This document shows positions 5,804 to 38,283 of a DNA stretch of 64,000 nucleotides, piece by piece. The stretch lies in NCBI GenBank assembly GCA_965248535.1, contig CBDFJR010000002.1:512001-576000 (forward strand), read 5' to 3'. A model generated the notes under the pieces. It was given only the letters and a program-made list of their open reading frames with translations, was not told where the DNA came from and ran no database searches. This DNA is from Phormidesmis sp. (GTDB taxonomy: Bacteria > Cyanobacteriota > Cyanobacteriia > Leptolyngbyales > Leptolyngbyaceae). The stretch's first letter is position 1; every line of letters begins with the position of its first letter. Made by a program: the position numbers and the translations under genes.

Positions 5804-6388
5804 ATGGCAAACCTGCAATCTATTCACGCCGTTGGTGAATCGCTGCGGAACTACTTGCGGAATACCTATCCGTCTAGTGCTTTCGCGGGTCTGCCAACCT
5901 TTGATATTCAACTAATCTCTAGCGGTGAGTTAGCCACCCGCGACGAGCCAACTAATACGCTGTCGCTGTTTCTGCATCGCGTCACGGTAAATGAGCACCT
6001 GCGAAGCAGCAGACTCAACCATTCAACTCAAATCGGCATCCCTTTGTCGGTCGATTTGCACTATCTGATGACCGTTTGGGCAGACAGCGCCCTAGCAGAA
6101 CACCTCGTTTTAGCCTGGGCAATGCGGCAGTTTCACACCCGCTCAATTTTAGATGCGTCTTCGCTCTCGCCCGAAGCTGGATGGCAGCCAGACGACACGA
6201 TTCAACTCATTCCCGTCGATTTGAGCAATGAGGATATTATGCGAATCTGGGATCGGTTAAAGCCGTCTTATCGCCTGAGTGTGGCTTATGTAGCCAGAGT
6301 TGTGAGCATTGAGGCTGATAGCCAAGAGGCAGGTCGCCCCGTGGTGGCAACGCGGTTTAATGTGGACGATCGAGAGGCGCTGCCATGA
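5804..6388 (+). CDS. Pvc16/Afp16-like cap/terminator protein (DUF4255)
   Basis: LSLFLHRVTVNEHLR, LSVDLHYLMT and IWDRLKPSYRLSVAYVARVV are typical of DUF4255; first gene of the cluster. Confidence 0.85.
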   Translation: MANLQSIHAVGESLRNYLRNTYPSSAFAGLPTFDIQLISSGELATRDEPTNTLSLFLHRVTVNEHLRSSRLNHSTQIGIPLSVDLHYLMTVWADSALAEHLVLAWAMRQFHTRSILDASSLSPEAGWQPDDTIQLIPVDLSNEDIMRIWDRLKPSYRLSVAYVARVVSIEADSQEAGRPVVATRFNVDDREALP

Positions 6389-7179
6389 CGCTGGTTCAGG
6401 TCGATCGCCGAGTGTTAGGAGCCATTCAACTCGTCAATGCCACGACGGGAGCGCCGATTCAACGACGGTTGCAGGTGAGCGGGCGCAATGTGCACTTAGT
6501 GTGGAATCGTGGCGGTTACGCGGTGATTTATGCCGCAGACGGGCTGCAAGCCTATAGCGAAAGCTTTCTAGCACCTGCAAGTCCGGCTTTGGCAACGGTA
6601 TCTATTCAAGTGAGCGTCATCGACCCCGAAGGACAGTATCTGCCTCGACAGGTGACGATCAAACTGCCTCGTGATTCTGATTCCACTAAAGCCACTGCTG
6701 TCGATTCTTTGTTTCAGCCGATTCGGGTTGCGGTGTATCGATCGCCTGCGGCTCAAGTGGCATCGGGTTGGGCGGTGATTCGGGCGACGGTGCTTGATAA
6801 AACCACCAGCCAGCGCCTACCGTGGGCATTGATTCGCGTCGTGCAATCCTCTCCGGCTAAGGTAACGCTTAGTTTAGCCGATTGGCGCGGTGAAGCATTA
6901 ATTAGCGTTTCTGGAATCCCAGTTACAACGCCTGGTGCAGGGGTGGGTGCCGTCTTAGTGAATGAGATTGATGTCACGTTAGAGATTGTTTTTAATCCAC
7001 TTTTAATAACCATTCCGATCGCGTCTGATCTATCGACGTTAACCGATCCCAATGCTGGCTATGTGCCCGATCCTGATGATTTAGACACTCGGCGGGCCAG
7101 CCTACGATCGGGCAGTCTTCCCTACAAACTCGCCTCTGGTCGCGATCGTGCAGACACGTTAGCCGTCACCTTGGCTTAA
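6385..7179 (+). CDS. Beta-rich CIS accessory protein (possible cap adaptor, carboxypeptidase-regulatory-like fold)
   Basis: ATGA overlap with the DUF4255 gene; beta-strand-rich sequence; lies between cap and sheath. Confidence 0.55.
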   Translation: MTLVQVDRRVLGAIQLVNATTGAPIQRRLQVSGRNVHLVWNRGGYAVIYAADGLQAYSESFLAPASPALATVSIQVSVIDPEGQYLPRQVTIKLPRDSDSTKATAVDSLFQPIRVAVYRSPAAQVASGWAVIRATVLDKTTSQRLPWALIRVVQSSPAKVTLSLADWRGEALISVSGIPVTTPGAGVGAVLVNEIDVTLEIVFNPLLITIPIASDLSTLTDPNAGYVPDPDDLDTRRASLRSGSLPYKLASGRDRADTLAVTLA

Positions 7180-7206
7180 TTCCTCGTTTTTATAAGGAGA
7201 AACCCA

Positions 7207-8925
7207 GTGCCCGAATATTTAGCTCCCGGTGTGTATGTCGAAGAAACCAGCTTCCGCGCAAATTCCATCTCAGGCGCAGGAACCAGCACCACCGCGTTTG
7301 TAGGAACCACCCTCAAAGGCCCTGTTGGCGGCGTTCCAGAATTGATCACCAGCTTTGGTGAGTTTGAGCGCCTCTATGGTGGGTTAGACGACCTCAACGG
7401 CAAGACCAACTACATCGCCCATGCGGTGCGCGTTTTCTTCGACAACGGCGGCTCTCGTCTCTATGTCTCTCGCGTCGTCTCTGGCAGCGCAACGGCGGCT
7501 CAATCGGCTGATCTGCTCACTAGCGCGACGGATGAAGCGCGATTTGTGGCGCGGTTTAAGGGCGATGGTGGCAATGGCGAAGTCTTGCTCTATCAAAAAG
7601 AAACTCCTGTCAGCGTGGGCACGATCGCCAACGCCCCGTTAGGCAGTATTTTGCGAGTCAAAGCGGCTGACAGCAAATATTATCTCAAACAGGCCAATCT
7701 CAAAGCGGCAGGCGATTGGAAAGACTCGGCAGATGCTGCTTTGACCGATGCCATTTTAGGGACAAATCCCGCTCCTCAGCTAGATCTACTGACGCTGATG
7801 GTGGTGACTCGCGATCTCAGCGGCAGTGAAACCAGCTATGAAGACTTGGGATTTGATGCCAAACATCCCCGTTGGGTGGGCAGCGTTTTGTCTTCTCAGC
7901 CCAATCGTCGCACTGATGCGTTAACTAATCTCTTTGCAATTACCGTTACGCCCACTACTGTGACAGGTCTTGCGTTGCGCGAAGGATTATTTGCAGCGTC
8001 TATTCAACCGCAAAAAGTTTCTCTATCGGGTGGAACTAGTGGAGGCGATCCCGGCGTTGACGATTATAAAGCGGCGCTGAAACAGCTTGAATCATTAGAA
8101 GATATCTCGATCGTGGCCGCTCCGGGTCACTCAGCGTTAGCCGAGACGTTATTTCTAGGCATTCAGCAAGAGCTATTGACCTTTGTGTCTCGGCGACGGG
8201 CTTATCAAATTGCAGTGCTGGATACGCCACCCAATCAAAGCCTGAATGATGCGCGAACGGTGCGGAGTCGCCTCGATTCTTCCTATGCCGCTCTCTATTA
8301 TCCGTGGGTGGTCGTTGCCAATCCGCAAGCCCGATCGGGCAGTGCCGCCCTTGCCGAATTAACGCTGCCCCCGTCTGGTTTTCTGTGCGGCATCTATGGG
8401 CGCAATGACGTAGAGCGCGGTGTTTATAAAGCGCCTGCGAATGAGATCGTGCGCGGTGCAATTCGATTTGAGACGCAGATTAACTTTGCTCAACAAGAAG
8501 TTCTCAATCCTTTAGGGATTAACTGTCTGCGGTTTTTCCCTGGTCGGGGCTATCGCGTTTGGGGTGCCCGCACGATCAGTTCTGACTCGAACTGGAAGTA
8601 TGTCAACATCCGCCGTTACTTTAATTATCTAGAATCGTCGATCGATCGCAGCACTCAAAATCTGGTGTTTGAGCCGAATGGCGAACGCCTCTGGGCAAAT
8701 GTCCGCGATACGATTTCGGCGTTTCTCTATAGCGAATGGGTGTCAGGCGCACTGCTCGGCAGCAGCTATCAAGAAGCCTATTTTGTGCGATGCGATCGCA
8801 GCACCATGACGCAGCAAGATCTCGACGAAGGCAGGCTGATTTGTCTGATCGGGGTAGCAGCGATTAAACCTGCTGAATTTGTGATCTTCCGCATTGGTCA
8901 AAAAACGGCTGATTCTCGCGGTTAA
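7207..8925 (+). CDS. Contractile tail sheath protein (major)
   Basis: MPEYLAPGVYVEE start; YAALYYPWV, LPPSGF, KAPANE, VWGARTI, WKYVNIRR, VFEPN and KPAEFVIFRI motifs; aaggag RBS. Confidence 0.96.
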   Translation: MPEYLAPGVYVEETSFRANSISGAGTSTTAFVGTTLKGPVGGVPELITSFGEFERLYGGLDDLNGKTNYIAHAVRVFFDNGGSRLYVSRVVSGSATAAQSADLLTSATDEARFVARFKGDGGNGEVLLYQKETPVSVGTIANAPLGSILRVKAADSKYYLKQANLKAAGDWKDSADAALTDAILGTNPAPQLDLLTLMVVTRDLSGSETSYEDLGFDAKHPRWVGSVLSSQPNRRTDALTNLFAITVTPTTVTGLALREGLFAASIQPQKVSLSGGTSGGDPGVDDYKAALKQLESLEDISIVAAPGHSALAETLFLGIQQELLTFVSRRRAYQIAVLDTPPNQSLNDARTVRSRLDSSYAALYYPWVVVANPQARSGSAALAELTLPPSGFLCGIYGRNDVERGVYKAPANEIVRGAIRFETQINFAQQEVLNPLGINCLRFFPGRGYRVWGARTISSDSNWKYVNIRRYFNYLESSIDRSTQNLVFEPNGERLWANVRDTISAFLYSEWVSGALLGSSYQEAYFVRCDRSTMTQQDLDEGRLICLIGVAAIKPAEFVIFRIGQKTADSRG

Positions 8926-8975
8926 CGTTTGCTTTTTGAATGGACTGACCCTCGACATCCTTTGGAGAATTTCTT

Positions 8976-10981: not shown

Positions 10982-11463
10982 GCAATTCAGCCTATCCGCT
11001 ACAGGTGTTTCGCTTTCAGGTCACGTTTCAAAAAGATCCGTTGCCCAACAGTGGCGATACGGCTCCGGTGCAGATGAGCGCGGCGTTTTCAGAATGCACG
11101 GGGCTAGAAGCGACGATGGAACCGAAAGTAATCAAAGAAGGCGGACGCAACTATGGCGCAGCACAGCGTGCGGGACAGGTGACCTTTGCGACGGTGATTT
11201 TAAAGCGTGGCATGACCCGCGATCGTGACTTATGGAACTGGTTTACCCTGGTGACTCAGGGAGCCTATGCCCATCGCCGCACGGCCACAATCACGATGTT
11301 TGACACGAGCGGCGCGGGCGTTTTGTCGTGGCAGTTAGAGAAGGCGATGCCCGTCAAGTTTAAAGCCGCCGACCTGAATGCCAAAGGCACCGAGATCGGC
11401 GTTGAAGAACTGCATTTTGTCCATGAAGGATTAAGTTTGATCAGAGGAGAAGGAACGCTATGA
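10978..11463 (+). CDS. Second tail tube protein (gp19-like)
   Basis: FRFQVTF, AFSECTGLE, IKEGGRN, VILKRG and PVKFKAADLNA..EIGVEELHF motifs. Confidence 0.93.
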   Translation: MSNSAYPLQVFRFQVTFQKDPLPNSGDTAPVQMSAAFSECTGLEATMEPKVIKEGGRNYGAAQRAGQVTFATVILKRGMTRDRDLWNWFTLVTQGAYAHRRTATITMFDTSGAGVLSWQLEKAMPVKFKAADLNAKGTEIGVEELHFVHEGLSLIRGEGTL

Positions 11464-12467
11464 GTGAACCTGTGACTCGCGCTACCTTCACGCCGCAAAC
11501 GGGAAGTAAAACGCCAATCGAAGTGCATTTTAACCCGGTTTCGCTTCAGATTTCGATTAGTAATTCTCTAGAAGATAAAGGCAAAGGGAAAGACAAAAAA
11601 CAATACATTTCTAAAACGGCGGCAACGCTGGCGATGGATTTAATTTTCGACACAACTCACAAGGGCAGTGACGTGCGGATAGAAACTCAAAAGATCGCCC
11701 GATTTATGGAGCCAGGAAAAGAACCCGGCGATCAAAAAATTCCGACGATCGTGCTGTTTGAGTGGGGCACGTTTAAGTTTCAAGGCTTGATCCAATCCTA
11801 TCGAGAGACGATCGATTTCTTTTCGTCAGATGGGGTGCCGCTGCGGGCCAGCATTAGCCTCACGATGTCGCGTCAAGAAGAAGTGTTTGAGCCGAGTCCC
11901 CAGCCGCCTCGTGATTCCTCAGTTCAGGTGTCGGCGGGCATTAGCGCTAGTGCTGCCGCTTCCCTAGGGGGAGCACCCGATGCAGGACGGGCGATCGCGT
12001 CGGCAAATGCCCAAGACAGCCTGCGGTTTTCGAGCGGTGCCTTTACGTTGGATGCTTCGATTACGCTGAGTCCTGCGATCGCGTTTGCGACAGGCGGCGC
12101 TGGCATTGGCGGCGGCATTGGCATCGGTGGCGGCATTGGTGTTAGCGGAGATATTGGAATTAGTGGCGGAGTCGGGATTAGCGGCGGGGTTGGCATTAGT
12201 ACCGGAGCCGGAATCAGCATTGGCGGAAGTGCTTCCGCAGGAATCTCTGCCAGTGAAGGAGCCTTTGCAGGATTGCGTCTCTCTAGTGATGTGCGTCCTG
12301 TTGCACAAATTGATACTAATCGATTCATTCAATCGAGTGAATCTGTAGGTTTTGCCACTAGTCGTAATGCTAGTTTTCAAGTCGGTGGACAGGCAGAAAT
12401 TGAAGGGTCTGCCAGCTTAAGCACCAACGTCCGATCGCGCTCCACGATTCAGTTTGAGGAGGATTAA
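11460..12467 (+). CDS. CIS tube initiator (Afp7-like) with Gly-rich C-terminal repeats
   Basis: VHFNP..L, L.FDT, VLFEWG.F.F.G and F.SDGVPLRA motifs. No LysM domain is evident; G(I/V)SGG(I/V) repeats follow. Confidence 0.85.
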   Translation: MSEPVTRATFTPQTGSKTPIEVHFNPVSLQISISNSLEDKGKGKDKKQYISKTAATLAMDLIFDTTHKGSDVRIETQKIARFMEPGKEPGDQKIPTIVLFEWGTFKFQGLIQSYRETIDFFSSDGVPLRASISLTMSRQEEVFEPSPQPPRDSSVQVSAGISASAAASLGGAPDAGRAIASANAQDSLRFSSGAFTLDASITLSPAIAFATGGAGIGGGIGIGGGIGVSGDIGISGGVGISGGVGISTGAGISIGGSASAGISASEGAFAGLRLSSDVRPVAQIDTNRFIQSSESVGFATSRNASFQVGGQAEIEGSASLSTNVRSRSTIQFEED

Positions 12468-12469
12468 TT

Positions 12470-12631: not shown

Positions 12632-12668
12632 TTTCAAGTCTCTAGACATTTTGCCCTCTTTTTTAGCC

Positions 12669-13760: not shown

Positions 13761-14449
13761 TGCAGCCGATCTTTGAGCATCCAACGACAGCATTACACGG
13801 CAGCTATCTAGGAGAAGTAGTGTCGGTGAACGATCCTGACCATCTCTCTAGGGTGCAGGTGCGGCTGTTTAACTTCGATGGCGCAGGGCAACAAGATGCG
13901 CCGATTTGGGCAAGAGTGGCGGTGCCAGTGGCAGGAGCGAATTCTGGAGCGTTTCTGCTGCCCGATGTGGGAGACGAAGTGCTGATCACGTTTGTGAATG
14001 GGGATGCGCGGCTGCCCATGGTGATCGGGTCGCTGTGGAATGGCAACGCACCCGCACCTGAAACCCTAGGCGGAAGTGGTGAAACCGTCGATCGCTGGAC
14101 TCTAGTGGGAAAAGCCCAAACGCGGATCGCGATCGTCGAAGAATCTCCGGGCAATGCCACCATTTCTCTCACGACTCCGGGCGGGGTCAGCGGCATCCTC
14201 ACCCAAACCGCCGGAGGAAAAATCGAGTTTGAAGCCGCAGGCACGACAGTCACAGTAGACACCAGTGGGGTCACGGTGCAGAGTGCCGGACGGGTCAGCG
14301 TCAGCGCTAGCCAAGTCGAAGTCACGGCGGGACAGGTGACGGTGAACGCGGCGATTTCGACCTTTTCGGGGGTCGTCAAATGTGACACTCTGATTGCCAC
14401 CACCGTGGTCTCGACCACCTACACACCCGGAGCCGGAAATATATGGTAG
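13760..14449 (+). CDS. Spike, baseplate assembly protein V / VgrG gp5-like half
   Basis: VNDPDHLSRVQV, WARVA.P.AG..GAFLLPDVGDEVL..F.NGD..P.VIGSLWNG OB-fold followed by beta-helix repeats; TAATG coupling to the hub gene. Confidence 0.92.
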   Translation: MQPIFEHPTTALHGSYLGEVVSVNDPDHLSRVQVRLFNFDGAGQQDAPIWARVAVPVAGANSGAFLLPDVGDEVLITFVNGDARLPMVIGSLWNGNAPAPETLGGSGETVDRWTLVGKAQTRIAIVEESPGNATISLTTPGGVSGILTQTAGGKIEFEAAGTTVTVDTSGVTVQSAGRVSVSASQVEVTAGQVTVNAAISTFSGVVKCDTLIATTVVSTTYTPGAGNIW

Positions 14450-16005
14450 ACCCTGCTGTGATTCTGCAAGCGGTGGGCGTGAGTCAGGTTGCCGACCAGC
14501 CCAATTTGCCTAAATCCTACGATCTGCGACCCACGATTCTTAAACGAACGGAGCAAGATTTTATTGGCTCTGTTTTAGATGAATTGCGGAGTGGAAAAGG
14601 AATTCAAGCGTTAACGGGAGTGATTGATTCTCATCAGTCTGGTGATACCTTAACGTTTCTTCAGCCAGTGCATCGCACGTTCTATCTCGTGATTTTAGAA
14701 ATTGCTTGTGATCCGTTTAATCAGCCCTATTTGCAGCCGCGTCTTGATCCTCGCAAAATCGAGAGTGCGGGGCTAGTGGTGCGTCGAGTCGCTGCCAATG
14801 GCAAACTCGAAGGCTGGCGCAAACAGGGGCACTCAGTGCGGGGCTGGATTCCCTTTGACACTGAGAATGCTGAGAAGCTTGATCCTGATCCCGATCGCCG
14901 CCCCCCGATCGCGTCGGGATTGCCAGACCTCGATCGCTTGTTGGCTCCCCATGCGCCGCTTTCTGAAAGTGTTGCGCCGCTCTATGTGGCTCCGCCCGAT
15001 GTCTGTCAGGCGGTGGGACGCACGATTTTGTATGGCGTGATTCCGGTGACTAGCTCAGAGTTTAGCGAAGCGCCCCCCGTCACGCCCACGCCGGAGGATG
15101 CTGACACGTTAAATCAGCTAAATGCCGCTATTAAAGATATGCTGCCGATTTATCTGCGATCGGGCGGCGATCGGCGAGAACCCCAAGGGGGTAGGGTGTT
15201 GACGGCTGATCTGGCGGATGATCTGAGCTTGCGCGGCTTTTTAGCGACGCTGCACCAGCTAAGATTTCAGTTTCGGCTGTTTGATGCTGATCTGGCGAGT
15301 GTTGCTTTATTCAACGCATTCAATCAAGCGATCGTGGCCCCTGACACGCCCAATGCTCAACCGTTGGGCGATCTGTTGTCTTTAGCGAGTCGCATTCTCA
15401 TCGATCGAGAAGCCGGATTAGAGGTGACGCTGCCTCAAAATTGGCCGACCTTGAGCGATTCCCAAAATCAGACTCTTTTAGATTTGTCGCGGGCGGCGTT
15501 GATGAGTCATTTATCGGCTTTGACGGCGGGTGAAAGTCGATTTGAGGCGTTAGAGTCCCGTTATCAAGTGCGGGCGTTTGTGCGGCTCAAATCTATTGAT
15601 GCTTGTGTTCATTCTCCGTTGTGGAGTGACTATAGTGCTGAGTTTACGATCGCGCCCTGGTATGAATCTGGCAGTCAGCCTCCAGTGAAAGTGGTGTTGC
15701 CTGACATTCTGAATCCTAAAGCGTTGGCAAGTCTTAAACCTAGCGTTGCTTTTTCGGTTCCACCTAAATTATTTAACTTTCTCAACAAGAACGATATCGC
15801 CAAATCTGTTTTGTCTGGGGATGTTAAAGATGGTGATGATGGCGGCATTGCCTGGATTTGTTCGTTTAATATCCCGATCATTACACTTTGTGCTTACTTA
15901 GTGCTGAATATTTTCTTACAACTCTTCAATATTATCTTTTGGTGGATTTTGATCGTAAAGATTTGTCTTCCTGTTCCTAAAAAGCTATTTCCCAAGCCGA
16001 AGTAG
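14443..16005 (+). CDS. Unknown spike-adjacent protein with long C-terminal hydrophobic segment
   Basis: 520-aa ORF overlapping the spike stop; ends GIAWICSFNIPIITLCAYLVLNIFLQLFNIIFWWILIVKICLPVPKKLFPKPK. Confidence 0.8.
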   Translation: MVDPAVILQAVGVSQVADQPNLPKSYDLRPTILKRTEQDFIGSVLDELRSGKGIQALTGVIDSHQSGDTLTFLQPVHRTFYLVILEIACDPFNQPYLQPRLDPRKIESAGLVVRRVAANGKLEGWRKQGHSVRGWIPFDTENAEKLDPDPDRRPPIASGLPDLDRLLAPHAPLSESVAPLYVAPPDVCQAVGRTILYGVIPVTSSEFSEAPPVTPTPEDADTLNQLNAAIKDMLPIYLRSGGDRREPQGGRVLTADLADDLSLRGFLATLHQLRFQFRLFDADLASVALFNAFNQAIVAPDTPNAQPLGDLLSLASRILIDREAGLEVTLPQNWPTLSDSQNQTLLDLSRAALMSHLSALTAGESRFEALESRYQVRAFVRLKSIDACVHSPLWSDYSAEFTIAPWYESGSQPPVKVVLPDILNPKALASLKPSVAFSVPPKLFNFLNKNDIAKSVLSGDVKDGDDGGIAWICSFNIPIITLCAYLVLNIFLQLFNIIFWWILIVKICLPVPKKLFPKPK

Positions 16006-16077
16006 TGTTGTAGAGATCGATTTCTGAGTGTTCTTTTTTTAGTATCGCGACCTGAAATCTCAATCTAACGTGTCCTC

Positions 16078-16467
16078 ATGCCTCCTAACCCTCCCCCGAT
16101 CGGATTCCCTCTCCTCACTGTCCCCGATGCTAACGGACAGATTAACTTCCCTAGTCTCGAAGCCAGCGTTCGGCAAGCGATTCAGGTGATTTTGCAAACT
16201 CGACCGGGCGAACAGTTGAGACACCCTGACTTTGGGGCCGGACTGCAAACCTTTTTGCAAGAATCCAACACGCTGGTGACTCGTCGCCGCTTGCACGATC
16301 GCATTACCGATTCTCTAACGCGCTGGGAACCCCGGATTCTCATCGATCGCGTCGAAGTCGAAACGGTGCCCGATCAGCCGACGCATCTACGCATCGAAAT
16401 TTGGTATCGTCTGCGGCGCACGGGCGTAGCGCAACATCTCGGTTTAACTATGCAACTGGAGGTTTAA
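16078..16467 (+). CDS. GPW/gp25 sheath-initiator baseplate protein
   Basis: SVRQAIQVILQTRPGEQLRHPDFGAGL and RWEPRI motifs. Confidence 0.93.
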   Translation: MPPNPPPIGFPLLTVPDANGQINFPSLEASVRQAIQVILQTRPGEQLRHPDFGAGLQTFLQESNTLVTRRRLHDRITDSLTRWEPRILIDRVEVETVPDQPTHLRIEIWYRLRRTGVAQHLGLTMQLEV

Positions 16468-16468
16468 T

Positions 16469-18658
16469 ATGCCGATTCGCCCTCCAAATTTAGACGATCG
16501 CAGCTTTGATGATTTAGTCAACGAAGCGCTGGCGCGCATTCCTGCCCACACGCCCGAATGGACGCACGATCGGGTCGGCGACCCAGGACGCACGATCGTC
16601 GAGTTGTTTGCGTGGCTCACCGATACGCTGCTTTATCGCGCCAACTTGATCCCTGAACGGCAGCGATTGGCATTTTTGCGGCTGCTGGGTGTGCCGATGC
16701 GTCCGGCGCTGCCTGCTCAAGGCCTCGTCACCATCTCTGACGATCCCCAAGCGACCCAAGCCCTGATGCTGCAACCGTTGGCGACCGTTAAAGGAACCGT
16801 CAATTTTGAGACTCGTGCTGAAATGACGGTGTTTCCGGTCACGGCTGAACTTTATTACAAACGTCCGTTAGTTCCCACCGAAGCTGCAAAACTGGCCAAC
16901 ATTGTTCAAGGACTTCAGCAGGTTTATCAACTTCAAACTCCGGCGATTCCCTATGTGACCACGCCGATTTTTGCCGCCGCCAAACCTGAATCTCAAGGCT
17001 TTGATCTCGTTAAACAAACCATTGATCAGTGTGTTTGGATCGCCATTCTCGCGACGGAACCAAAATTTGTAGATGCAGCAAGACGGTCCCTCGGTCATAG
17101 TGCCGTGGGGCAACCTTTGCTGAATGTGGGCGTGATGCCCGCGACCGCCATCCCCGATTTATTTGAAGACATCGGCACTCGTGCCCGCATTCCTCACGTT
17201 TGGGAGATTAGCACTGGGCAAGAAATCGCCAATGTACCGCAATATCTAAGCCTGAATGTGATTGCCGATTCCACTGCGGGGCTGACGCGGCGCGGCGTTG
17301 TCAGGCTGGCGATGCCGTCACCGAATTATATCGGGGCACCGACCAACAATGTTCGAGATCGCCTCAACGCCGGAACGGGCGATCGTCCACCGCGCATTGA
17401 TGCGCCCGAAGTGGCGGCGCGACTGGTGACCTGGCTGCGGTTGCGTCCGAGTCGTCGCGATTTACAAACCCTGTCCCTAAGCTGGATGGGCATCAACGTA
17501 GTTGAGATTGACCAACGACAAACCCTGGCGGGGCGGGTGATTGGCGAAAGTGACGGCAGCGCTGACCAAGAATTTCAGCTACCCGGACAATCGATCGAGC
17601 CAACCACGCTGCAAATCCAAGTCGAGGAGGCGGGACGCGGCTATCAGCTTTGGCACCCGATCGACGATCTCGCCCTCGCCGGACAAAACGCTAGCGTCTA
17701 TCGGTTAGATAGCGAAGCGGGCACAATCCGCTTGGGCAACGGCATTCAAGGACAGATTCCTGAAGCCGGACGGCGAATTCGAGTGGCGTTGATGCGATCG
17801 GGCGGGGGAATCGCCGGAAATTTGCCAGCCGGATCGCTCAACAGCATTACGGCCACCGATTTGCAGGGCAATCTCGTCACCAAACTCAAGGTTCAGCAGC
17901 CGTTGCCGATGCAGGGCGGGGTTGAAAGTGAGACCCTAGCCGAAGCCGAAATTCGCATTCCGGGACTGTTTCGCCATCGCGATCGGGCGGTGACAGCCGA
18001 TGATTATCAGCGATTGGCGGCCGAGACTCCGGGGGTGCGGCTGGGTCGTGTCGAAGTGTTGCCAAAATTTAAACCGCAGCAGCGACGATTTGATATTCCG
18101 GGTGTGGTTTCAGTGATGGTGTTACCGTTCCAAGAGTCATTAGAGTTACCAAATCCGCGAGTGGATCGACCGCTATTAGAATCTGTACAGGCTTATTTAG
18201 ATTCTCGCCGTCCTTTAGCCACAGAACTCTATGTGATCGGCTGTGAATACATTCCCATTGGCATTAGCGTGGGCATTCAGATTCAAAACGGGTTTGGACA
18301 AGATGGTGTTTTATTAGCCGTGCGGAAGGCTCTGCAACGATTTCTGTTTCCGATCGCGCCCGGTGGCATTGATGAAAAAGGCTGGAGCCTAGGCAGAACG
18401 GTGAAAGCCAGAGAATTAGACGTGGTGGTAGCCAGAGTTCCGGGTGTCTTAGCCGTGTTGAATATTCGTCTGTTTCAGCAAATCGGCGCGACTGCTCGGT
18501 GGCAGTCGGTGTCTGAGGTCAGCCTCACCCCTTGGCAACTGCCCGAACTGCTGGCGATCGTGGTAGTTGCTGACGAAGATGCCCCCGACACGCTTGACCC
18601 GATTTCCTTTGGCGCTCAGTCAGGCGTTGCGGTTCCTGTCGTCCCGGAGGTGTGCTAA
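16469..18658 (+). CDS. Baseplate J-like wedge protein (Afp11-like)
   Basis: PNLDDRSFDDLV, PEWT...GDPGRT.VELFAWL, GESDG..DQ.F, GGG..GN and DRAVT..DY..LA motifs. Confidence 0.93.
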   Translation: MPIRPPNLDDRSFDDLVNEALARIPAHTPEWTHDRVGDPGRTIVELFAWLTDTLLYRANLIPERQRLAFLRLLGVPMRPALPAQGLVTISDDPQATQALMLQPLATVKGTVNFETRAEMTVFPVTAELYYKRPLVPTEAAKLANIVQGLQQVYQLQTPAIPYVTTPIFAAAKPESQGFDLVKQTIDQCVWIAILATEPKFVDAARRSLGHSAVGQPLLNVGVMPATAIPDLFEDIGTRARIPHVWEISTGQEIANVPQYLSLNVIADSTAGLTRRGVVRLAMPSPNYIGAPTNNVRDRLNAGTGDRPPRIDAPEVAARLVTWLRLRPSRRDLQTLSLSWMGINVVEIDQRQTLAGRVIGESDGSADQEFQLPGQSIEPTTLQIQVEEAGRGYQLWHPIDDLALAGQNASVYRLDSEAGTIRLGNGIQGQIPEAGRRIRVALMRSGGGIAGNLPAGSLNSITATDLQGNLVTKLKVQQPLPMQGGVESETLAEAEIRIPGLFRHRDRAVTADDYQRLAAETPGVRLGRVEVLPKFKPQQRRFDIPGVVSVMVLPFQESLELPNPRVDRPLLESVQAYLDSRRPLATELYVIGCEYIPIGISVGIQIQNGFGQDGVLLAVRKALQRFLFPIAPGGIDEKGWSLGRTVKARELDVVVARVPGVLAVLNIRLFQQIGATARWQSVSEVSLTPWQLPELLAIVVVADEDAPDTLDPISFGAQSGVAVPVVPEVC

Positions 18659-21190
18659 ATGGACGCAAACGGCCTGCGATTTTGGATGTTGGCAACTGCC
18701 GACCAGTGGACGAGTGTCAAGGATCTGCCGCCGCTTGAGTATGATCAGCCGTGTCAGCGCTTGCGTCTCGCCAGTGAGCGCCTTTTGCCGCCGTGGAGTC
18801 AGTCAACCTCTGAGCAAACGTCAGATACAGCGCTTTCTCGCTTAGAGCAGGTGCCGCAAACTTTGGATGGCTATGGCACACGAGCTTTTTGGGAGCCAAC
18901 ATCCGGCAAGATTTTGGCGACGGGCGCTCTGCCGCGATCGGTGCCCATTTTTACGCCCGAAGTGGGGAATCCGCCCACCGATTTGGCGATGGGTTACGAC
19001 GGCATTCTCTATATAGCGTTGCGATCGGGTGCCATCGTGCTGGTAGATCGCCGCGATCGCTGGTTGCCGATCACCCTCCAAACCGACGGCTTTAAAGCTT
19101 GGAGATTGGCGGCCGATCCGGCTGGAGGGGTTTGGGTATTGGATCGCGACGATCGCCAATTGGGAAAAGTGCTAGGCGTTCCCTTTCCGACCCAGCCCGC
19201 CGGAAAGTATGCTGACGATATTTTTCGCCCCTGTGATGAGAATCCCAATCCGCCCCGTTTAGTCGTTTGGCCAACGTCGAGCCTGCCCAGCGATGAAAAA
19301 TGGGTGGCGATCGCCACGAATCCCGACGGACATCTAGCATTGCTCACCTGGTTAAACGATGGAACGCCCAGAGTTCGCACGTTGCAATCTCACCAGTGGA
19401 CTGCTCCGATCGCTCTGATGGGCTGTCGCTATCCCTTTAGTTTGAGTTGGGTAGCGGTGGATCGAATCGCCGTTCTCGTCAGTGATTTGTTAACCGAGGC
19501 TCCCGTTTATGCCATGCCCAAACTGGCTATCGGTCAAGCTGAGGCGACCCAAGTGCAGCCTGTGGGCGATCTTTACCCGTTGCATGATCATACGGGCAAT
19601 CCTTTTTTACACGGCTTGAGTTTGCCGCCTCACTACCCAACTGCGATGGCAAGCGCGCCGCTTTATCCCCTTTCGCTGCCGTCTTATGCGCGTCAGGGAA
19701 CCGCGATTAGCGCTGGGCGCAACTCCGAAGGAACCGCTCCGACCCCTTTAGACAGTGGCAGTTTGCAAACCGAGTGGCATCGGCTCTATTTAGAAGCCGT
19801 TATTCCCGCTAAGGGTGAGATTCGGGTAGATTTAGCGGCGACCGATCAGCCGACCTTGCCCGATCAGCCGGAGTGGTTTGAGCATTGCTTTGGGGCAGTT
19901 CAATCGTCGGGTCTGCCCTGGGGCGCTTGGGTGTCTGCGCCGTCTGAGATTCCGTTTCATCCTGGTTTGTTGAGCGAGCGGGAAAAAGACCGATCGGGCT
20001 TATTTACGGTGCTGATTCAGCGGCACGATCGCCGGGTCAGAACGCTGCAAGGACGCTATCTCTGGGTGCGAGTGCGGATGGTTGGCGATGGGCGCACGAC
20101 TCCAGAATTAGCAGCGCTGCGCGTTTATGGATCACGATTTTCTTATGTTAATCACTATTTACCCGAACTTTATCGTGAAACCGTGTTCGGCAGCGATCGT
20201 GATGCTGTTACCGCCGCGACTCCGGCTGACTTTTTAGAGCGATTTTTAGCTAACTTTGAGGGAATTCTCACTCCCATTGAAGATCGTATTGCTAATAGTC
20301 ATCTTCTCACCGATCCTCGCACGACTTCTGAAGACGCGATCGAGTGGTTAGGAAGTTGGATCGGCATCACGTTTGATCCGGCTTATTCGTCGGCTCGTCG
20401 TCGCCGTCTAATCGAGGCTACGCCTTCACTCTATCGTCATCGCGGCACCTTACTGGGATTGCAGCAAGCCCTCGATATCGCCACCGATGGAGCCGTGAGC
20501 CGAGGCGCGATCGTCGTCTTAGAAGATTTTCGACTGCGCCGCACCTTTGCCACGATTTTAGGAGCCGATTTAGCCGACGAAACCGATCCCCTGCTGGCCG
20601 GATTGGTGATTAGCGGTAATTCCTATGTGGGAGATACGCTGTTTTTGGGTGACGACACGCGGCAGGAATTTTTAGCCCTATTTCGGGCAGACATTGAGAC
20701 AAATTCGTTTAAAAAACAGGCTGAAGAAACGGCGATCGCGGCATTTTTTGATCAGTTAGCCTATCGCACTACCATTTTTGTCCATTCAGAAGTCACGCCC
20801 CAGGATTTGGGCTTAATTCGTCGCGTCGTTGAGCTAGAAACCCCGGCTCACGTTTTGTCTCGCGTCGTGTCTGCGAGCAGTGCGTTAATGGTCGGCGTTG
20901 CCTCGCTGGTGGGCGTTGACACCTATCTCAGCGCTAAACCCAAGCCCCAGGCGGTTGCCCTCAACAAAAGTCAGGTAGGAGTGCGCGATCGCGTGCTGCG
21001 TCCTGCCAGTCTTGATCCCCGTTTAGAAGGAGGCATTGATGAACTTGAATCCGTTTCGCCACCCCCGATCGCGCTGCTTAAATCACGCCCGATCGCCGAG
21101 TTTGGACAGTCGTTTCAGCTAGATGGCAATCAGTCTCAGGCTTTCGACGGCCACACGATCGTGCACTACAAATGGACAAAATTACAATAG
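18659..21190 (+). CDS. Baseplate wedge / phage tail protein I-like protein with beta-rich N-terminus and C-terminal half-PKD
   Basis: YLPELYRE, FLERFLANFE..LT.IED.I, WLGSWIG, LYR.RGT..GL and ETPAH motifs. The C-terminus resembles the first half of a PKD domain. Confidence 0.85.
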   Translation: MDANGLRFWMLATADQWTSVKDLPPLEYDQPCQRLRLASERLLPPWSQSTSEQTSDTALSRLEQVPQTLDGYGTRAFWEPTSGKILATGALPRSVPIFTPEVGNPPTDLAMGYDGILYIALRSGAIVLVDRRDRWLPITLQTDGFKAWRLAADPAGGVWVLDRDDRQLGKVLGVPFPTQPAGKYADDIFRPCDENPNPPRLVVWPTSSLPSDEKWVAIATNPDGHLALLTWLNDGTPRVRTLQSHQWTAPIALMGCRYPFSLSWVAVDRIAVLVSDLLTEAPVYAMPKLAIGQAEATQVQPVGDLYPLHDHTGNPFLHGLSLPPHYPTAMASAPLYPLSLPSYARQGTAISAGRNSEGTAPTPLDSGSLQTEWHRLYLEAVIPAKGEIRVDLAATDQPTLPDQPEWFEHCFGAVQSSGLPWGAWVSAPSEIPFHPGLLSEREKDRSGLFTVLIQRHDRRVRTLQGRYLWVRVRMVGDGRTTPELAALRVYGSRFSYVNHYLPELYRETVFGSDRDAVTAATPADFLERFLANFEGILTPIEDRIANSHLLTDPRTTSEDAIEWLGSWIGITFDPAYSSARRRRLIEATPSLYRHRGTLLGLQQALDIATDGAVSRGAIVVLEDFRLRRTFATILGADLADETDPLLAGLVISGNSYVGDTLFLGDDTRQEFLALFRADIETNSFKKQAEETAIAAFFDQLAYRTTIFVHSEVTPQDLGLIRRVVELETPAHVLSRVVSASSALMVGVASLVGVDTYLSAKPKPQAVALNKSQVGVRDRVLRPASLDPRLEGGIDELESVSPPPIALLKSRPIAEFGQSFQLDGNQSQAFDGHTIVHYKWTKLQ

Positions 21191-21284
21191 TGGAGGTAAT
21201 AGAAACTACTACGCGGACTGAAATGCAAACTGGACAGTTCTTGATTGCAATCGATAAATTTTATAAATTCCTCAGGAGACTCTC

Positions 21285-21677
21285 ATGGCAGAAGCAGAAC
21301 TCAAACTTAATACGCCCGTCGAAACCACCGATCCCGTTTTAGTGGTCAAAGTCGATCCCGCTAATCCCTTATCCAACGGGGTGCACCGATTTCAGCTAGT
21401 CGTCGTCGATGACTCTGGCAATGAGTCAGATCCGGCGATCGTAGAAGTGATTATTCGCGACACGCAGCGACCCACGGCGGTGATCGATGCTCCCCAAACC
21501 GCCGAAACGGGACAGAGCTTTAAACTCAGTGGCGAACGATCGAGCGATGTGGCTCCCGGCAAAGTCGTTAAATATACCTGGACGATGATTCCGATTATTG
21601 AAAGACCGCCGATCCGACCCACGCCGCCGCTCACGCCGCCGATTATTCCGGTGCCGATTCGTCCTCCGATTCAATAG
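21285..21677 (+). CDS. Circularly permuted PKD/Ig-like protein with Pro-rich tail
   Basis: GVHRFQLVVVDDSGNES followed by PTAVIDAP....GQSFKLSGERSSD..GKVVKYTW; aggag RBS. Confidence 0.75.
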   Translation: MAEAELKLNTPVETTDPVLVVKVDPANPLSNGVHRFQLVVVDDSGNESDPAIVEVIIRDTQRPTAVIDAPQTAETGQSFKLSGERSSDVAPGKVVKYTWTMIPIIERPPIRPTPPLTPPIIPVPIRPPIQ

Positions 21678-21681
21678 CCCT

Positions 21682-21855
21682 ATGCCAACCTTTGAGCCGC
21701 AAAAACCGATCGTTACCGCTACCCCGATCGTGGTCGTCGATGCCAGCCTCGCGCCGGGTCGCTATCGCTTTCAGCTAGTGGTCGAAGACGATGCCGGAAA
21801 CCAAAGTCAGCCGACCGAGCAAATTGTTGTCATCAATCCCCCCAGGATTCGCTAA
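21682..21855 (+). CDS. 57-aa half-PKD protein, paralogue of the first half of 21285-21677
   Basis: MPTFEPQKPIVTATPIVVVDASLAPGRYRFQLVVEDDAGNQSQP. ATG at 21682 lies within ORF-track ORF 21598-21855. Confidence 0.75.
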   Translation: MPTFEPQKPIVTATPIVVVDASLAPGRYRFQLVVEDDAGNQSQPTEQIVVINPPRIR

Positions 21856-22724: not shown

Positions 22725-22778
22725 ATCTTCTATTTTGTCTGTTTTAAAAGACAGTGACCCGCTACCCCCTTACGCCTT

Positions 22779-28885: not shown

Positions 28886-28913
28886 ACCCTAGATTCCAAA
28901 ACTACTCACTGCT

Positions 28914-30302
28914 ATGAAACGCCATGTTCACACGGTTCGTCTGCGATCGCATGATGAAGCCCTGATTCATCAAGGGGCTGTGTTGTTAGAAGATGCGCTG
29001 CACACGGCATCGTTGCCCGAAAGTGGGCGGCTGTTGGTGGTGCGATCGCTGAATGTTGGCAAGATTCACAGTCAGCACAGTTCGGCGACGTTGGCTCTTG
29101 TGGTAGAGCAACAATTGGCGCAGATTGGCATGATGGCAGTTCATGCTGAAGATCCGGTGGCAAAGGATGCGATCGCGGTCTATTTTCGAGATTCAATCGA
29201 GCCTTATCTTTGTCTGGCGGTGAGGTTAGCAAATCACCGCAGCACCGAGGAATGGTTTTGGCGGTTAGCGGTGGTGAACTGGCAGCCTCATTTGTCTAGA
29301 GAAGAAGGATTGCGACGGGTGCTTTATGGGGTAATGCAGACGGCGATCGGGGTCGCTGCGATCGTGCCTTTAATGCAGGAGTTATTGGCTAAAAGTTCAA
29401 TCATGCCAATGCTTTTGGCGCTGACTGAGAAAGACGGATCTGCTTTATTGCAGGTCTGCGGATGGATACAATCAGAGACTCCAATTGGATTAATAAATCC
29501 ATTATCAATTTCATTCTTATCCAGAGATTGGATTGATTTACTTCAGCATTGGGTTGCGGTTTGGGGTGTTGAAGATGCCCGATCGCTTTGGTTGACTACT
29601 ATTGTTCTACTTGCAGAACAACCTGCGTTTAGGATCGATCCGCAGTTGATTGCCCGATCGCAGCAGATCATTCAACAAATTAGCGATTCTAGAAAGTTGT
29701 ATTTGTCTGATCAGTCAGTGTTAATGGAGAATCCAGCTACGATTATAAGAAGTTTTCCCTTAGTGTTAAACGAATCATACTTATCCAGCAATAGTTTATC
29801 ACTTCAGAATTCTTCTTTAGATCCTCATCGATTTATAGATACTCCTCAATTAACGGTATTTGCCGGATTATTTTTCCTGTTACCTTTAATGACTTACTTA
29901 AAAATCGAATCCTTTTTAGAATCGAATCCTCATTTAATTGAGTTTGATTTACCTGGAATGTTGCTCTATACGATCGCTCAACGATTAGATATTCCTGAAA
30001 CCGATCCCGTTTGGGAGGCATTGCCTGAACCTTCAAACGATTTCATAGACTCCACTTTGCTTCGCTCTTGGCTCAACTCAATGCGGCGCTGGTGCCGTCT
30101 CAATGCCGAAATGGGACTACACAATTTAGTGACTCGATCGGGGCAGATTTTAATCACCCGCACCCACCTTGATATCTGGTTTAACCCGCAGCAAGCCGAC
30201 CTGCGGATTCGTCGCATCGGACTAGATCTCAATCCGGGTTGGGTGCCCTGGTTTGGACGAGTCGTTGCCTTTCACTACACAGGAGCCGGGTATGGAAATT
30301 GA
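28914..30302 (+). CDS. Tape-measure-like protein (Afp14-like)
   Basis: FAGLFFLLP and R.G.I....THLD..F....DL.IRR.GLD.NPGWVPW C-terminal motifs; lies immediately before the ATPase. Confidence 0.6.
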   Translation: MKRHVHTVRLRSHDEALIHQGAVLLEDALHTASLPESGRLLVVRSLNVGKIHSQHSSATLALVVEQQLAQIGMMAVHAEDPVAKDAIAVYFRDSIEPYLCLAVRLANHRSTEEWFWRLAVVNWQPHLSREEGLRRVLYGVMQTAIGVAAIVPLMQELLAKSSIMPMLLALTEKDGSALLQVCGWIQSETPIGLINPLSISFLSRDWIDLLQHWVAVWGVEDARSLWLTTIVLLAEQPAFRIDPQLIARSQQIIQQISDSRKLYLSDQSVLMENPATIIRSFPLVLNESYLSSNSLSLQNSSLDPHRFIDTPQLTVFAGLFFLLPLMTYLKIESFLESNPHLIEFDLPGMLLYTIAQRLDIPETDPVWEALPEPSNDFIDSTLLRSWLNSMRRWCRLNAEMGLHNLVTRSGQILITRTHLDIWFNPQQADLRIRRIGLDLNPGWVPWFGRVVAFHYTGAGYGN

Positions 30303-32299: not shown

Positions 32300-32313
32300 A
32301 CCCAGGAACCGCG

Positions 32314-34476: not shown

Positions 34477-34491
34477 CCGATTAGAACTACT

Positions 34492-34632
34492 CAGTACGGG
34501 CATGGCATCGCCGCGCCCCTTGACCCTGCATAGTACGGGCATGGCATTGCCGCGCCCATTGACCCAGTACGGGCATGGCATCGCCGCGCCCATTGACCCA
34601 GTACGGGCATGGCATTGCCGTGCCCATTGACC
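34492..34632. repeat. Four tandem 34-bp REP-like palindromic units
   Basis: (c/t)agtacgggcatggcat(c/t)gccg(c/t)gccc(a/c)ttgacc at 34492, 34531, 34565 and 34599; each contains a GGGCATGGC/GCCGYGCCC hairpin. Confidence 0.9.
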
Positions 34633-34678
34633 TTGCAACTAACCAACATTATTAATAGACAATTCCTAGGAGCGCCCC

Positions 34679-35953
34679 ATGGTAGCCACATTTGAACCTA
34701 AAAAAGACGAGCAACTCACCGCCAAACCCGCGACACTGCCATCTACGATCGCGCCCACCCCATCAAGCGGCACTACGGGAATGCCTCTATTTCTGCAAGC
34801 CGCAAAACCTGTGCAACGCCAGAGTGCACCCGATCTCAAAGATGGGCCTGCCGACGAAGCCGCCAGAGTTCGTAAATTAAATGAAGATTACGCGATCGCT
34901 CTAGCCGCCAAAAACTGGTCACTCACCGCAGAACTGTTGAATGCGTTTAACGAGAGCGATATTCAGATCAAGCTCAGTTCATTGCTAAAAGGAACGATCG
35001 GGGCGATTTATCAAGGCGCGGTCAACAATCCCAAAGTTGGCAGCGAGTCGCAGGTTGCCAATCTGACTCGCGCCGTCTATCTCGATCTCAACTATGAAAA
35101 TGCCATCAAAACCGGAGCTTGGGGCGATGCAGCCACCCACCTAAACGGCTTTAACGATGTCGATATTACCCTGCGCGTTCAAAAACTGACGGCGATGCCC
35201 TTAGCCAATCTCTACGCGGCTGCCAAAACCAACGACAGAATCACACGACCCATCATCGCCAAAGGCTTTAGCCTAGTCGGAGATGACTTTAGAACGTTTC
35301 TTAAACAAGCGACGGCCTTGGGCATCTTTGCCGATATTTCTGGCAAGCTAACCGATCTTCAAACCAAGAGCATCACTAAAGAAGTGGTCATTCCCACCAC
35401 GTTGCTCAAACCTGCCACCAACACGATCGCCGATGATTTCAAACGCGCTAACGAACTCTATAACCCCGTTGGCATTGAGATTGAGCAGGGCAACCCCGTC
35501 GAAATCAGCGAAGAAACGACCAAACTGCTGCTAGGGGCTGATAAATCGCTGGATGAGTTCACAACCAACGATGCCACGGCCGAAGAGATTAAACTCGTCG
35601 AGCAAAATCGTCAAAAAGGGCGCATGACAGGCTATTGGGTGCCAGCGCTTACCACGTCGCGAGGCGAAACCCTTGGCAAGGGCTTATTAGGCAACTCAAA
35701 CTTTATGAAAAACCTGAAGGACGATCGCATCTCCGTCGTCATTAACACCTCTAGTCGTGTTCAAGACAGCTTTGCCCACGAAGTCGGCCACGCGCTAGGG
35801 TTAGACCATGCGGCAGATGTCAACAATCTGATGGCGAAGGGCGAAAATCGCAACATTACGGGCGCTGGCATTGACCAATTGACCAATGCTCAACTAGCGA
35901 TTATTCGCGCTAATGCTCTGATTGAGCTAGGCAAAGCCGGGCTAGGAAAGTGA
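34679..35953 (+). CDS. Probable CIS cargo with C-terminal metzincin zinc metallopeptidase
   Basis: FAHEVGHALGLDH (HExxHxxGxxH) followed by an NNLM Met-turn; shares its N-terminal leader motif with the DUF4157 protein. Confidence 0.8.
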   Translation: MVATFEPKKDEQLTAKPATLPSTIAPTPSSGTTGMPLFLQAAKPVQRQSAPDLKDGPADEAARVRKLNEDYAIALAAKNWSLTAELLNAFNESDIQIKLSSLLKGTIGAIYQGAVNNPKVGSESQVANLTRAVYLDLNYENAIKTGAWGDAATHLNGFNDVDITLRVQKLTAMPLANLYAAAKTNDRITRPIIAKGFSLVGDDFRTFLKQATALGIFADISGKLTDLQTKSITKEVVIPTTLLKPATNTIADDFKRANELYNPVGIEIEQGNPVEISEETTKLLLGADKSLDEFTTNDATAEEIKLVEQNRQKGRMTGYWVPALTTSRGETLGKGLLGNSNFMKNLKDDRISVVINTSSRVQDSFAHEVGHALGLDHAADVNNLMAKGENRNITGAGIDQLTNAQLAIIRANALIELGKAGLGK

Positions 35954-38223: not shown

Positions 38224-38283
38224 GTTCCCCCAGATGTGGGCGTGGTCTATGCCATGCCCACCAATCGTTTTTGTCATTATTTC

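Follow-up and report, generated by a model that had tools for sequence, protein, structure and literature searches.

The DNA analyzed here (hereafter the window) is a 64,000-nucleotide stretch of Phormidesmis sp. contig CBDFJR010000002.1, positions 512,001 to 576,000, and the subject of this report is a gene cluster at window positions 5804-35953 comprising 23 tightly packed genes, all on the plus strand, which together form a contractile injection system (CIS) that is complete and belongs to the Afp/PVC-related superfamily.

Gene content and layout of the locus

A first-pass annotation of the window had proposed a full CIS gene set in a fixed order from cap to cargo. All 22 of the open reading frames (ORFs) that it implied were found on the plus strand between 5804 and 36243, and both the gene set and its order were borne out by Pfam and NCBIfam names together with the ORF map. 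Most neighboring ORFs overlap or nearly abut, with 4-nt overlaps at 6385, 9449, 10978, and 11460, a 7-nt overlap at 14443, and gaps of 0-1 nt at 16467/16469 and 18658/18659. A Pfam family was assigned at E ≤ 0.01 to 15 of these 22 proteins, while the other seven had none. Matches over the curated Pfam cut-offs were Pvc16_N, Phage_sheath_1 and Phage_sheath_1C (sheath A), Phage_T4_gp19 (twice), CIS_tube, Phage_GPD, Phage_base_V, GPW_gp25, Baseplate_J (a single gene), Tail_P2_I, AAA, eCIS_core/DUF4157 and, barely, Reprolysin_3; sheath B (Phage_sheath_1C, 17 bits) and the PKD match of the 130-amino acid (aa) ORF (23.3 bits against 27) fell below them. The markers of the extracellular CIS (eCIS) superfamily, i.e., sheath, tube, VgrG-like spike, gp25, baseplate J, DUF4255, AAA, and DUF4157, are thus present together and over cut-off, and the claimed kinship to Afp, PVC and MAC systems, which had been argued from DUF4255, the AAA ATPase and DUF4157, was confirmed in this way.

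The first-pass annotation had also listed three absences, each of which was upheld by the genome-wide PAAR search and the annotation of locus and flanks: PAAR (PF05488) and PAAR-like (PF13665) domains had no match in the whole genome, which is 99.76% complete, LysM had no Pfam match in the locus, and no lysis genes were recognized in the locus or its flanks. PHROGs matched none of ten proteins that lacked a family assignment, and promoter and terminator scans at the ends of the locus gave sites no commoner than in shuffled sequence.

The cap, which is 86-94% identical in the related loci L001, L002, and L005, is followed by a conserved 264-aa protein that had no match in Pfam, NCBIfam, PHROGs or PDB sequences. 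A counterpart lies at a like place in the Pseudomonadota genome G430 (34.5% identity), and on the Rhodococcus and Cereibacter plasmids described below the cap is likewise followed by an unnamed gene. The solved chain nearest to sheath A is the Streptomyces sheath 8bky (7.2e-101). Sheath B shares 28% identity with sheath A across the C-terminal part, has 1181 relatives at E ≤ 1e-10, and can be taken as a sheath despite its sub-cut-off Pfam match because it matches sheaths in the PDB (Table 1). The C-terminal half of the initiator (window 11460-12467) contains a run of short glycine-rich repeats. The small ORF after it, which had been claimed earlier, is a 53-aa frame kept in two relatives; it had no Pfam match and does not resemble the small ORFs found at corresponding sites of the Rhodococcus and Cereibacter plasmids. 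Hub and spike are separate, as had been claimed, with the two parts of the VgrG_rel model falling on two adjacent ORFs, and the final nine residues of the spike are invariant in all five aligned sequences.

In the baseplate region, the only other Baseplate_J/TIGR02243 copy in the genome lies on contig C5. The Cis12-like protein has a CIS12_fam match below cut-off, and its C-terminal end resembles positions 10-36 of 84 of K319L-like_PKD (E 0.029, below cut-off). The two short ORFs that follow are well conserved, the 130-aa ORF at 90% identity in relatives and the 57-aa ORF, which the earlier list did not contain, at 87-88% in L034 and L037. Across window positions 20918-21855, Ig/PKD-like domains seem to be divided over three consecutive ORFs, a layout kept in two relatives: the end of Cis12 covers the first third of a PKD model, the 130-aa ORF opens with the last third of an Ig-like model and continues with the first half of a PKD model, and the 57-aa ORF supplies the last third. 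Although the matches are all below cut-off, they form a coherent pattern, one possible reading of which is that subunits complement each other's strands.

Three fiber or crown paralogs had been proposed downstream. The 629- and 1405-aa proteins are indeed paralogous, but the 289-aa protein is joined to them solely by sub-threshold CIS13_fam matches and had no BLASTP match to either. It is 43% identical to a counterpart at a like place in G430, and its AlphaFold 2 (AF2) model, built from four sequences, had a pLDDT of 38.6, too low for fold comparison. The 629-aa protein showed no sequence similarity to solved PDB chains, those of Anabaena included. The 1405-aa protein, which is 37-39% identical in G430, had no Pfam match, also when its C-terminal part was searched separately. 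In a hydropathy scan neither the 289- nor the 629-aa protein showed a membrane segment and the 1405-aa protein showed one weak stretch of 19 residues (1.77), and the only further leads for these fiber-like proteins came from a language model, with scores <0.8 toward DUF6519/DUF4815. The arrangement resembles the eBAP3/eBAP5 type, in which a Tail_P2_I adaptor is likewise followed by several fiber genes and for which, in the accessible part of PMC12923769, as many as four fibers on each baseplate are proposed.

The 462-aa protein before the ATPase has 299 relatives at E ≤ 1e-5, with conserved ends and a variable middle, which together with its position fits a ruler; it had no Pfam match, and a profile of 28 relatives matched no solved PDB chain at E ≤ 0.1. 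The first-pass annotation had called it a tape measure and the 264-aa protein an adaptor. Genes do lie at those places, but the labels are positional, with no family or structure similarity found for either.

Table 1. Genes of the contractile injection system locus (window coordinates).
Product	Position	Strand	Basis
Cap / tail terminator (Pvc16_N, DUF4255), 194 aa	5804..6388	+	PF14065 5e-38, 131 bits
Conserved 264-aa protein after cap (earlier "adaptor")	6385..7179	+	Position; relatives
Sheath A, 572 aa	7207..8925	+	Phage_sheath_1 1.1e-20, Phage_sheath_1C 5.1e-13
Tube A, 158 aa	8976..9452	+	Phage_T4_gp19 7.7e-35; TIGR02241 over cut-off
Sheath B, divergent paralog, 510 aa	9449..10981	+	PDB sheaths 8e-15
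Tube B, 161 aa	10978..11463	+	Phage_T4_gp19 3.4e-32
Tube initiator, Cis7/Afp7-like, without LysM, 335 aa	11460..12467	+	CIS_tube PF19266 1e-20, residues 13-140
Small ORF, 53 aa	12470..12631	+	83% (L001) and 64% (L002) identity
Baseplate hub (gpD / N-part of VgrG), 369 aa	12651..13760	+	Phage_GPD 7.1e-8; VgrG_rel 2-346 of 547
Spike (gpV OB fold and beta-helix; C-part of VgrG), 234 aa	13745..14449	+	Phage_base_V 1.5e-21; VgrG_rel 372-544
p520, C-terminal hydrophobic helix, 520 aa	14443..16005	+	Position, conservation, AF2 models
gp25-like wedge protein, 129 aa	16078..16467	+	GPW_gp25 9.1e-23
Baseplate J (Afp11-like), single copy, 729 aa	16469..18658	+	Baseplate_J 8.9e-16; TIGR02243 1.5e-78, 265 bits, over cut-off
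Cis12/Afp12-like wedge protein, Tail_P2_I type, 843 aa	18659..21190	+	Tail_P2_I 1.5e-7; TIGR02242 over cut-off
130-aa ORF: second half of Ig-like domain, then first half of PKD-like domain, proline-rich tail	21285..21677	+	Big_13 65-100 of 102; PKD_4 2-40 of 85, below cut-off
57-aa ORF: second half of a PKD/Ig-like domain	21682..21855	+	PKD_4 58-80 of 85; K319L-like_PKD 55-84 of 84, below cut-off
Fiber-anchor-like protein, 289 aa	21855..22724	+	CIS13_fam 1.1e-8, below cut-off
Fiber-like protein, 629 aa	22779..24668	+	CIS13_fam 1.9e-6, below cut-off
Fiber-like protein, 1405 aa	24668..28885	+	N-part paralogous to 629-aa protein, E 3e-11
Conserved 462-aa protein at Afp14 position	28914..30302	+	Position only
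AAA+ ATPase (Afp15/Pvc15-like), 616 aa	30253..32103	+	AAA 1.8e-25, residues 459-584
Candidate cargo 1: DUF4157/eCIS_core protein with N-terminal leader, 720 aa	32314..34476	+	eCIS_core 1.9e-27; leader motif
Candidate cargo 2: metzincin-type zinc protease-like, same leader, 424 aa	34679..35953	+	Reprolysin and Matrixin, residues ~247-390

Related loci and subtype assignment

The first-pass annotation had considered the architecture of this locus distinct and atypical, a claim that the comparison of gene order did not sustain. Sheath A has 91% identity to its counterpart in Phormidesmis priestleyi BC1401 and 89% to the one in a Leptolyngbyales metagenome-assembled genome (MAG), and both loci are collinear with the window from cap to ATPase at 64-96% identity, including the 53-, 130-, and 57-aa ORFs. 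A profile of p520, the protein encoded directly after the spike, was found in 2 of 401 sampled Pseudomonadota genomes (G430, full-length, and G729). G430 matched 18 of 23 query proteins at 35-65% identity with the order kept from cap to ATPase; G729 matched 16 of the 23, more loosely, again in order. A Rhodococcus opacus plasmid likewise matched 16 of 23 in order, apart from a DUF4157 insertion that follows the second sheath. Plasmid pORIO4 of Cereibacter azotoformans matched 12 of 23, with tblastn identities of 24-50% and many genes unmatched. Its layout is nonetheless that of the window, with cap, unnamed gene, sheath, tube, sheath, tube, small ORF and initiator, hub, separate spike, gp25, one baseplate J, a Tail_P2_I-type protein, fiber-like (collagen-like and other) genes, an unnamed gene, ATPase and large 3′ genes; it differs in having a 312-aa and a PAAR-like protein between spike and gp25, where the window has p520. 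A Luteimonas locus (L004) whose sheath is 45% identical was rejected for synteny, as no other locus gene lay within 10 kb on either side. Loci of this order thus occur in Pseudomonadota, Actinomycetota and Alphaproteobacteria, and the gene content fits a published key to subtype IIb. The locus is an ordinary member of a widespread yet unstudied CIS type, and the architecture itself is not new.

The key of Chen et al. (2019), as given in the accessible part of that study, defines IIb by one afp11, a split afp8, the presence of afp6, the absence of afp10/PAAR, and divergent afp12/13. The locus has one Baseplate_J/TIGR02243 gene, an afp8 split into gp27-like and gp5-like ORFs, no afp10 (PAAR) match genome-wide, and divergent afp12/13 genes, with Tail_P2_I/TIGR02242 over and CIS12_fam and CIS13_fam below cut-off. 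Table S6 of the same source names, in the part available, one IIb plasmid, Rhodobacter sphaeroides ATCC 17025 pRSPA03, and this strain is now Cereibacter sphaeroides. The named matches of the 462-aa protein are hypothetical proteins of Sorangium, Corallococcus, Myxococcus, and Archangium, genera to which the accessible part of Table S3 assigns IIb loci. No cyanobacterium with a IIb locus appears in the part of that study's multi-locus genome table that was available, and Supplementary Table 2 of Weiss (2022), likewise available in part, holds one Leptolyngbyaceae genome and no Phormidesmis.

Two other lineage II subtypes were rejected. The IIa plasmids pWB1 and pHBOR03 have two afp11 genes, PAAR, one sheath and a LysM initiator, none of which applies to the window, and in the reference pWB1 the ATPase comes first, with one sheath, LysM, PAAR, and two J genes. 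Subtype IId needs a contiguous VgrG and mostly lacks afp12/13, while the window has a split spike and fiber-like genes and falls outside the IId clade. The latter was seen in an Afp11 tree of 16 rows, namely the window, the MAG, G430, G729, R. opacus, two Cereibacter plasmids, five IIa rows taken from three references, three references for IId and the second copy of the genome. A clade at 100/99 unites the window with the MAG, G430, G729, and R. opacus. Outside it fall the IId clade (100/99) and two IIa sub-clades (94/98 and 100/99), and IIa as a single group received 35/9.

We consider it likely that the locus was gained by horizontal transfer and is a complete, probably functional CIS of lineage II, of the dbeCIS subtype IIb type. 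Several points weigh against this assignment. The tree covered neither IIc, Ia and Ib references nor dbeCIS sequences, and the group nearest to the window's clade, the Cereibacter plasmids, joins it at 65/88 over long branches. No link of the conserved 53-aa ORF to Afp6 could be established. The Cereibacter locus holds a PAAR-like gene, though the key has IIb without PAAR, and pORIO4 itself was taken as IIb type from its genus and gene order.

Among systems that have been studied, the accessible literature places Afp and PVC in subtype Ia, MAC and the Amoebophilus system in Ib, and the Streptomyces and Roseiflexus systems in IId, with the Algoriphagus and Anabaena systems put in Ib by clustering with MAC/Amoebophilus. 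The implied kinship to the thylakoid-anchored CIS of Anabaena was not upheld, as the sheath and baseplate J are far nearer to the Streptomyces system: baseplate J and Cis12 match the latter (PDB 8bky and 9gtp) at 3.7e-39 and 2.7e-8, and Anabaena 7b5h scores 2.7e-45 for the sheath and 3.8e-4 for baseplate J. The cytoplasmic CIS of Streptomyces coelicolor (IId), as far as the sources describe it, shares lineage II and the lack of PAAR with the window, but has one sheath, a contiguous VgrG, a 190-aa Cis12, no fibers and the membrane protein CisA. The Anabaena PCC 7120 system (Ib), on equally partial sources, is alike in its cyanobacterial host, DUF4157 cargo genes, an extra gene beside the cap and fiber/crown genes after Cis12; it is unlike in having one sheath, a contiguous spike protein, a PAAR-like Cis10 and a Cis13 membrane segment, none of which was seen in the window. 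When the crown protein Cis19 and the Cis12 extension were sought by comparing the 629-aa protein and Cis12 with the 7b5h chains, no match was found at the level of sequence. With Afp/PVC (Ia), the locus has in common several sheath paralogs, an AAA ATPase, a cap and N-terminal cargo signals, but those systems have, according to the portions consulted, three sheaths, a LysM Afp7, a contiguous Afp8, PAAR, Afp12, and adenovirus-like fibers. We found no experimentally studied member of this type in a literature represented mostly by titles and the first lines of abstracts, which agrees, within that scope, with the earlier description of the type as little characterized.

The setting of the locus suggests that it was acquired. 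Its G+C content is 0.52-0.58 across most of its length and 0.48-0.50 in the flanks, which hold housekeeping genes encoding, to the left, RecO, an aldolase, an FAD reductase, and a nucleoside hydrolase and, to the right, a fasciclin protein, DnaN, and DnaA; none of ten flank proteins lies beside the locus in three close relatives. The p520 profile was found in 1 of 401 sampled cyanobacterial genomes, the present one, besides two 19-bit partial matches, and source names place relatives of p520 and of the 462-aa protein in several Leptolyngbya-like genomes. Judged from sequence composition and context, the locus resembles an island that is mobile or was transferred. No tRNA, integrase, capsid or terminase genes were found in the window. 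The dnaN and dnaA genes (window 39281-42309, minus strand) lie 3-6 kb to the right, so the island is close to the dnaA region of the chromosome. A PD-(D/E)XK transposase-like protein with DUF4351 (38236-39189, plus strand) near the right end of the island could relate to mobility, and farther on there is an 835-aa NACHT/STAND NTPase with HEAT repeats (47572-50079, minus strand), possibly a defense or signaling gene.

The same genome carries a second CIS on contig C5, split over three places (L007-L009): sheath, tubes, cap, ATPase, and two DUF4157 genes at ~2,230,000-2,240,000, tube, hub, and spike at 2,253,000-2,259,300, and gp25, baseplate J, and Cis12 at 2,347,200-2,350,800. The sheath of this second system matches that of Streptomyces from end to end (2e-122), and its Afp11 groups within the clade of the IId references (100/99).

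The protein at the PAAR position and the cargo leader

The p520 gene shares its first 7 nt with the end of the spike gene and is followed by gp25, so that p520 occupies the place of PAAR. It had no match in Pfam (even at E ≤ 10), NCBIfam or PHROGs, while its family comprises 1142 representative clusters at E ≤ 1e-3 and 262 at E ≤ 1e-30, all of them unnamed; the matches with a named source are hypothetical proteins of cyanobacteria, Acidobacteriota, Nitrospira, and Verrucomicrobia. A hydropathy scan gave a hydrophobic stretch at residues 468-515, and in a 52-member alignment the best-conserved part is the last ~45 residues, which are hydrophobic with conserved Asn and Cys. The AF2 model (pLDDT 85.3, pTM 0.79) has a helix at residues 477-504. 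In the small set of loci seen, p520 and PAAR-type genes are mutually exclusive: the window, R. opacus, G430, and G729 have p520 without PAAR, and pORIO4, pWB1, and pHBOR03 have PAAR or PAAR-like genes without p520. The idea that p520 is a fusion of the 312-aa and PAAR-like proteins of the Cereibacter locus was rejected, given hhalign probabilities of 0.2 and 0.3, respectively.

The placement of p520 on the spike was modeled with one copy of p520 and three copies of spike residues 100-234, using our own alignments and three controls. The partner score was 0.71 (runs 0.73, 0.65, and 0.71), as against 0.01 for the best control; the runs share at least 83% of contacts, and the partner pLDDT is at least 69. 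Of 157 solved complexes, 116 come up to the score mark applied, as do 2 of 215 mismatched pairs; these counts are only rough here owing to the use of our own alignments. In the model, p520 contacts all three spike copies close to their invariant C-terminal end, and on this basis p520 probably sits on the spike tip. In this respect it is like PAAR proteins and the VgrG-bound effectors of type VI secretion systems (T6SSs), in that its gene directly follows the spike and one copy is modeled on the trimer tip. The best VIA-align match of p520 is the N-domain of a T6SS effector bound to VgrG, a faint likeness to this Bacteroides protein (Z 7.1, root-mean-square deviation 3.1, 124 residues aligned). 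On the other hand, p520 has no PAAR Pfam match, is 520 residues long and ends in a conserved hydrophobic helix, and, unlike the variable T6SS effectors, it is a core gene of this locus type.

A bolder proposal, which we put forward tentatively and hold to be possible but somewhat short of even odds, is that the p520 family is an undescribed class of spike-tip protein replacing PAAR across a widespread branch of lineage II, in which the N-terminal part would bind the split-VgrG tip and the near-invariant, Asn-studded hydrophobic helix would enter the first membrane met on firing. If so, p520 would make the spike itself membrane-active, or would tether the particle to a membrane before firing. 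The following observations tell against the placement of p520 on the spike tip and its proposed membrane helix. The case for a membrane helix consists of the hydropathy scan and the AF2 helix at 477-504, the latter at pLDDT 62-79. Foldseek searches with the fold against PDB and BFVD returned nothing at E ≤ 0.001, and the VIA-align match is tied with unrelated Ig-like folds (Z 6.4-6.8). The modeled interface lies mainly in the N-terminal part of p520, while R. opacus and G729 recognizably keep no more than its C-terminal ~150 residues. When PDB sequences were searched with a p520 profile, the lowest E was 0.043. In G729 (contig C7, L031, ~14,800-16,900 of the locus), these ~150 residues end an 894-aa open frame; because only this part is kept there, the N-terminal part is exchangeable.

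The two genes after the ATPase share an N-terminal leader with the motif G-[MI]-P-[LR]-[YF]-L-Q, located ~30-45 residues from the start and followed by a P-V-Q-R-like turn, and genome-wide the motif occurs solely in these two genes. The second of them carries the metzincin motif HExxHxxGxxH and has no ortholog in the two relatives examined, P. priestleyi and the MAG; the C-terminal parts of both proteins had no Pfam match. The same leader heads genes of 479 and 728 aa in P. priestleyi (L034, 14407-18237) and of 651 and 332 aa in the MAG (L036/L037), and a like motif occurs on a 1260-aa gene in G430. At the level of sequence, a common leader on differing genes is the picture that exchangeable cargo sharing one loading signal would give. 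For PVC/Afp, cargo that bears loading signals at the N-terminus is cited in the accessible part of PMC12923769, and loading by the ATPase is proposed here from the PVC case.

Proposed mode of action and alternatives

By analogy with solved systems, the Cis7-like initiator and two tube proteins would build the inner tube, with the two sheath paralogs around it and the DUF4255 cap, perhaps with the 264-aa protein, closing tube and sheath. The baseplate center would be formed by the hub and separate spike, surrounded by gp25, one baseplate J, and the Tail_P2_I-type Cis12, and two or three fiber-like proteins with the small Ig/PKD pieces would hang from it. The AAA+ ATPase would load both cargo proteins via their shared leader. 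According to the complex model, one copy of p520 would sit on the tip of the spike trimer in the stead of PAAR, and its hydrophobic helix would meet the membrane first on firing.

We lean slightly toward release of the particles from lysed cells and action on other cells, a mode favored because fibers are present. The alternative that the CIS acts inside its producer, like the Streptomyces or Anabaena systems, with p520 as a tail-anchored adaptor to the cytoplasmic or thylakoid membrane, seems unlikely to us, at perhaps half the weight or less. It would account for the lack of lysis genes in or beside the locus, although such a lack is common in loci of this kind and is weak evidence, and it would suit the build of p520, a large soluble part with a single C-terminal hydrophobic helix and ~16 residues after it. 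The nearest solved relatives are, moreover, the cytoplasmic Streptomyces particles, whose firing, according to the accessible part of PMC12237407, needs the membrane protein CisA. Against it, the locus has two or three fiber-like genes and PKD/Ig pieces that are missing in the Streptomyces system, the modeled contact of p520 is with the spike tip and not the baseplate rim, and the fiber proteins have no clear membrane segment, the 629-aa protein being unlike any solved chain, that of Anabaena included.

That the p520-bearing loci form a subtype separate from the six in dbeCIS we regard as improbable. Their Afp11 clade is set off from the Cereibacter plasmids by a long branch (1.14) and joined to them only at the 65/88 given above, p520 is unrelated by hhalign to either the 312-aa or the PAAR-like protein of the Cereibacter locus, and the NCBIfam CIS1, CIS5, CIS12, and CIS13 equivalogs score far below their cut-offs. 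However, the gene order from cap to ATPase equals that of the Cereibacter locus, four of the five features in the IIb key were found and none was contradicted, and the relatives of the 462-aa protein come from genera that have IIb loci in the available part of Chen's Table S3. A defective prophage tail module or R-type tailocin is very improbable: sheath, tube, gpD, gpV, gp25, J, and P2-I families are common to myovirus tails, but the window has none of the phage or integration genes sought, PHROGs matched none of the ten proteins searched, and DUF4255, the AAA ATPase, and DUF4157 are, in the accessible part of PMC8213781, markers of CIS loci and not of phages.

The locus represents a type that is widespread in soil and water metagenomes, with more than 1000 representative clusters of the marker p520, and that could be studied in the laboratory because the cultured P. 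priestleyi BC1401 carries nearly the same locus. The second, IId-like system of the genome raises the question of two systems coexisting in one cell. The parts that differ from solved systems are the putative tip protein in the stead of PAAR, the build with two sheaths and two tubes, and the shared cargo leader, which could matter for re-targeting or re-loading such particles; of these, the tip protein p520 and the cargo leader are the parts most worth following.

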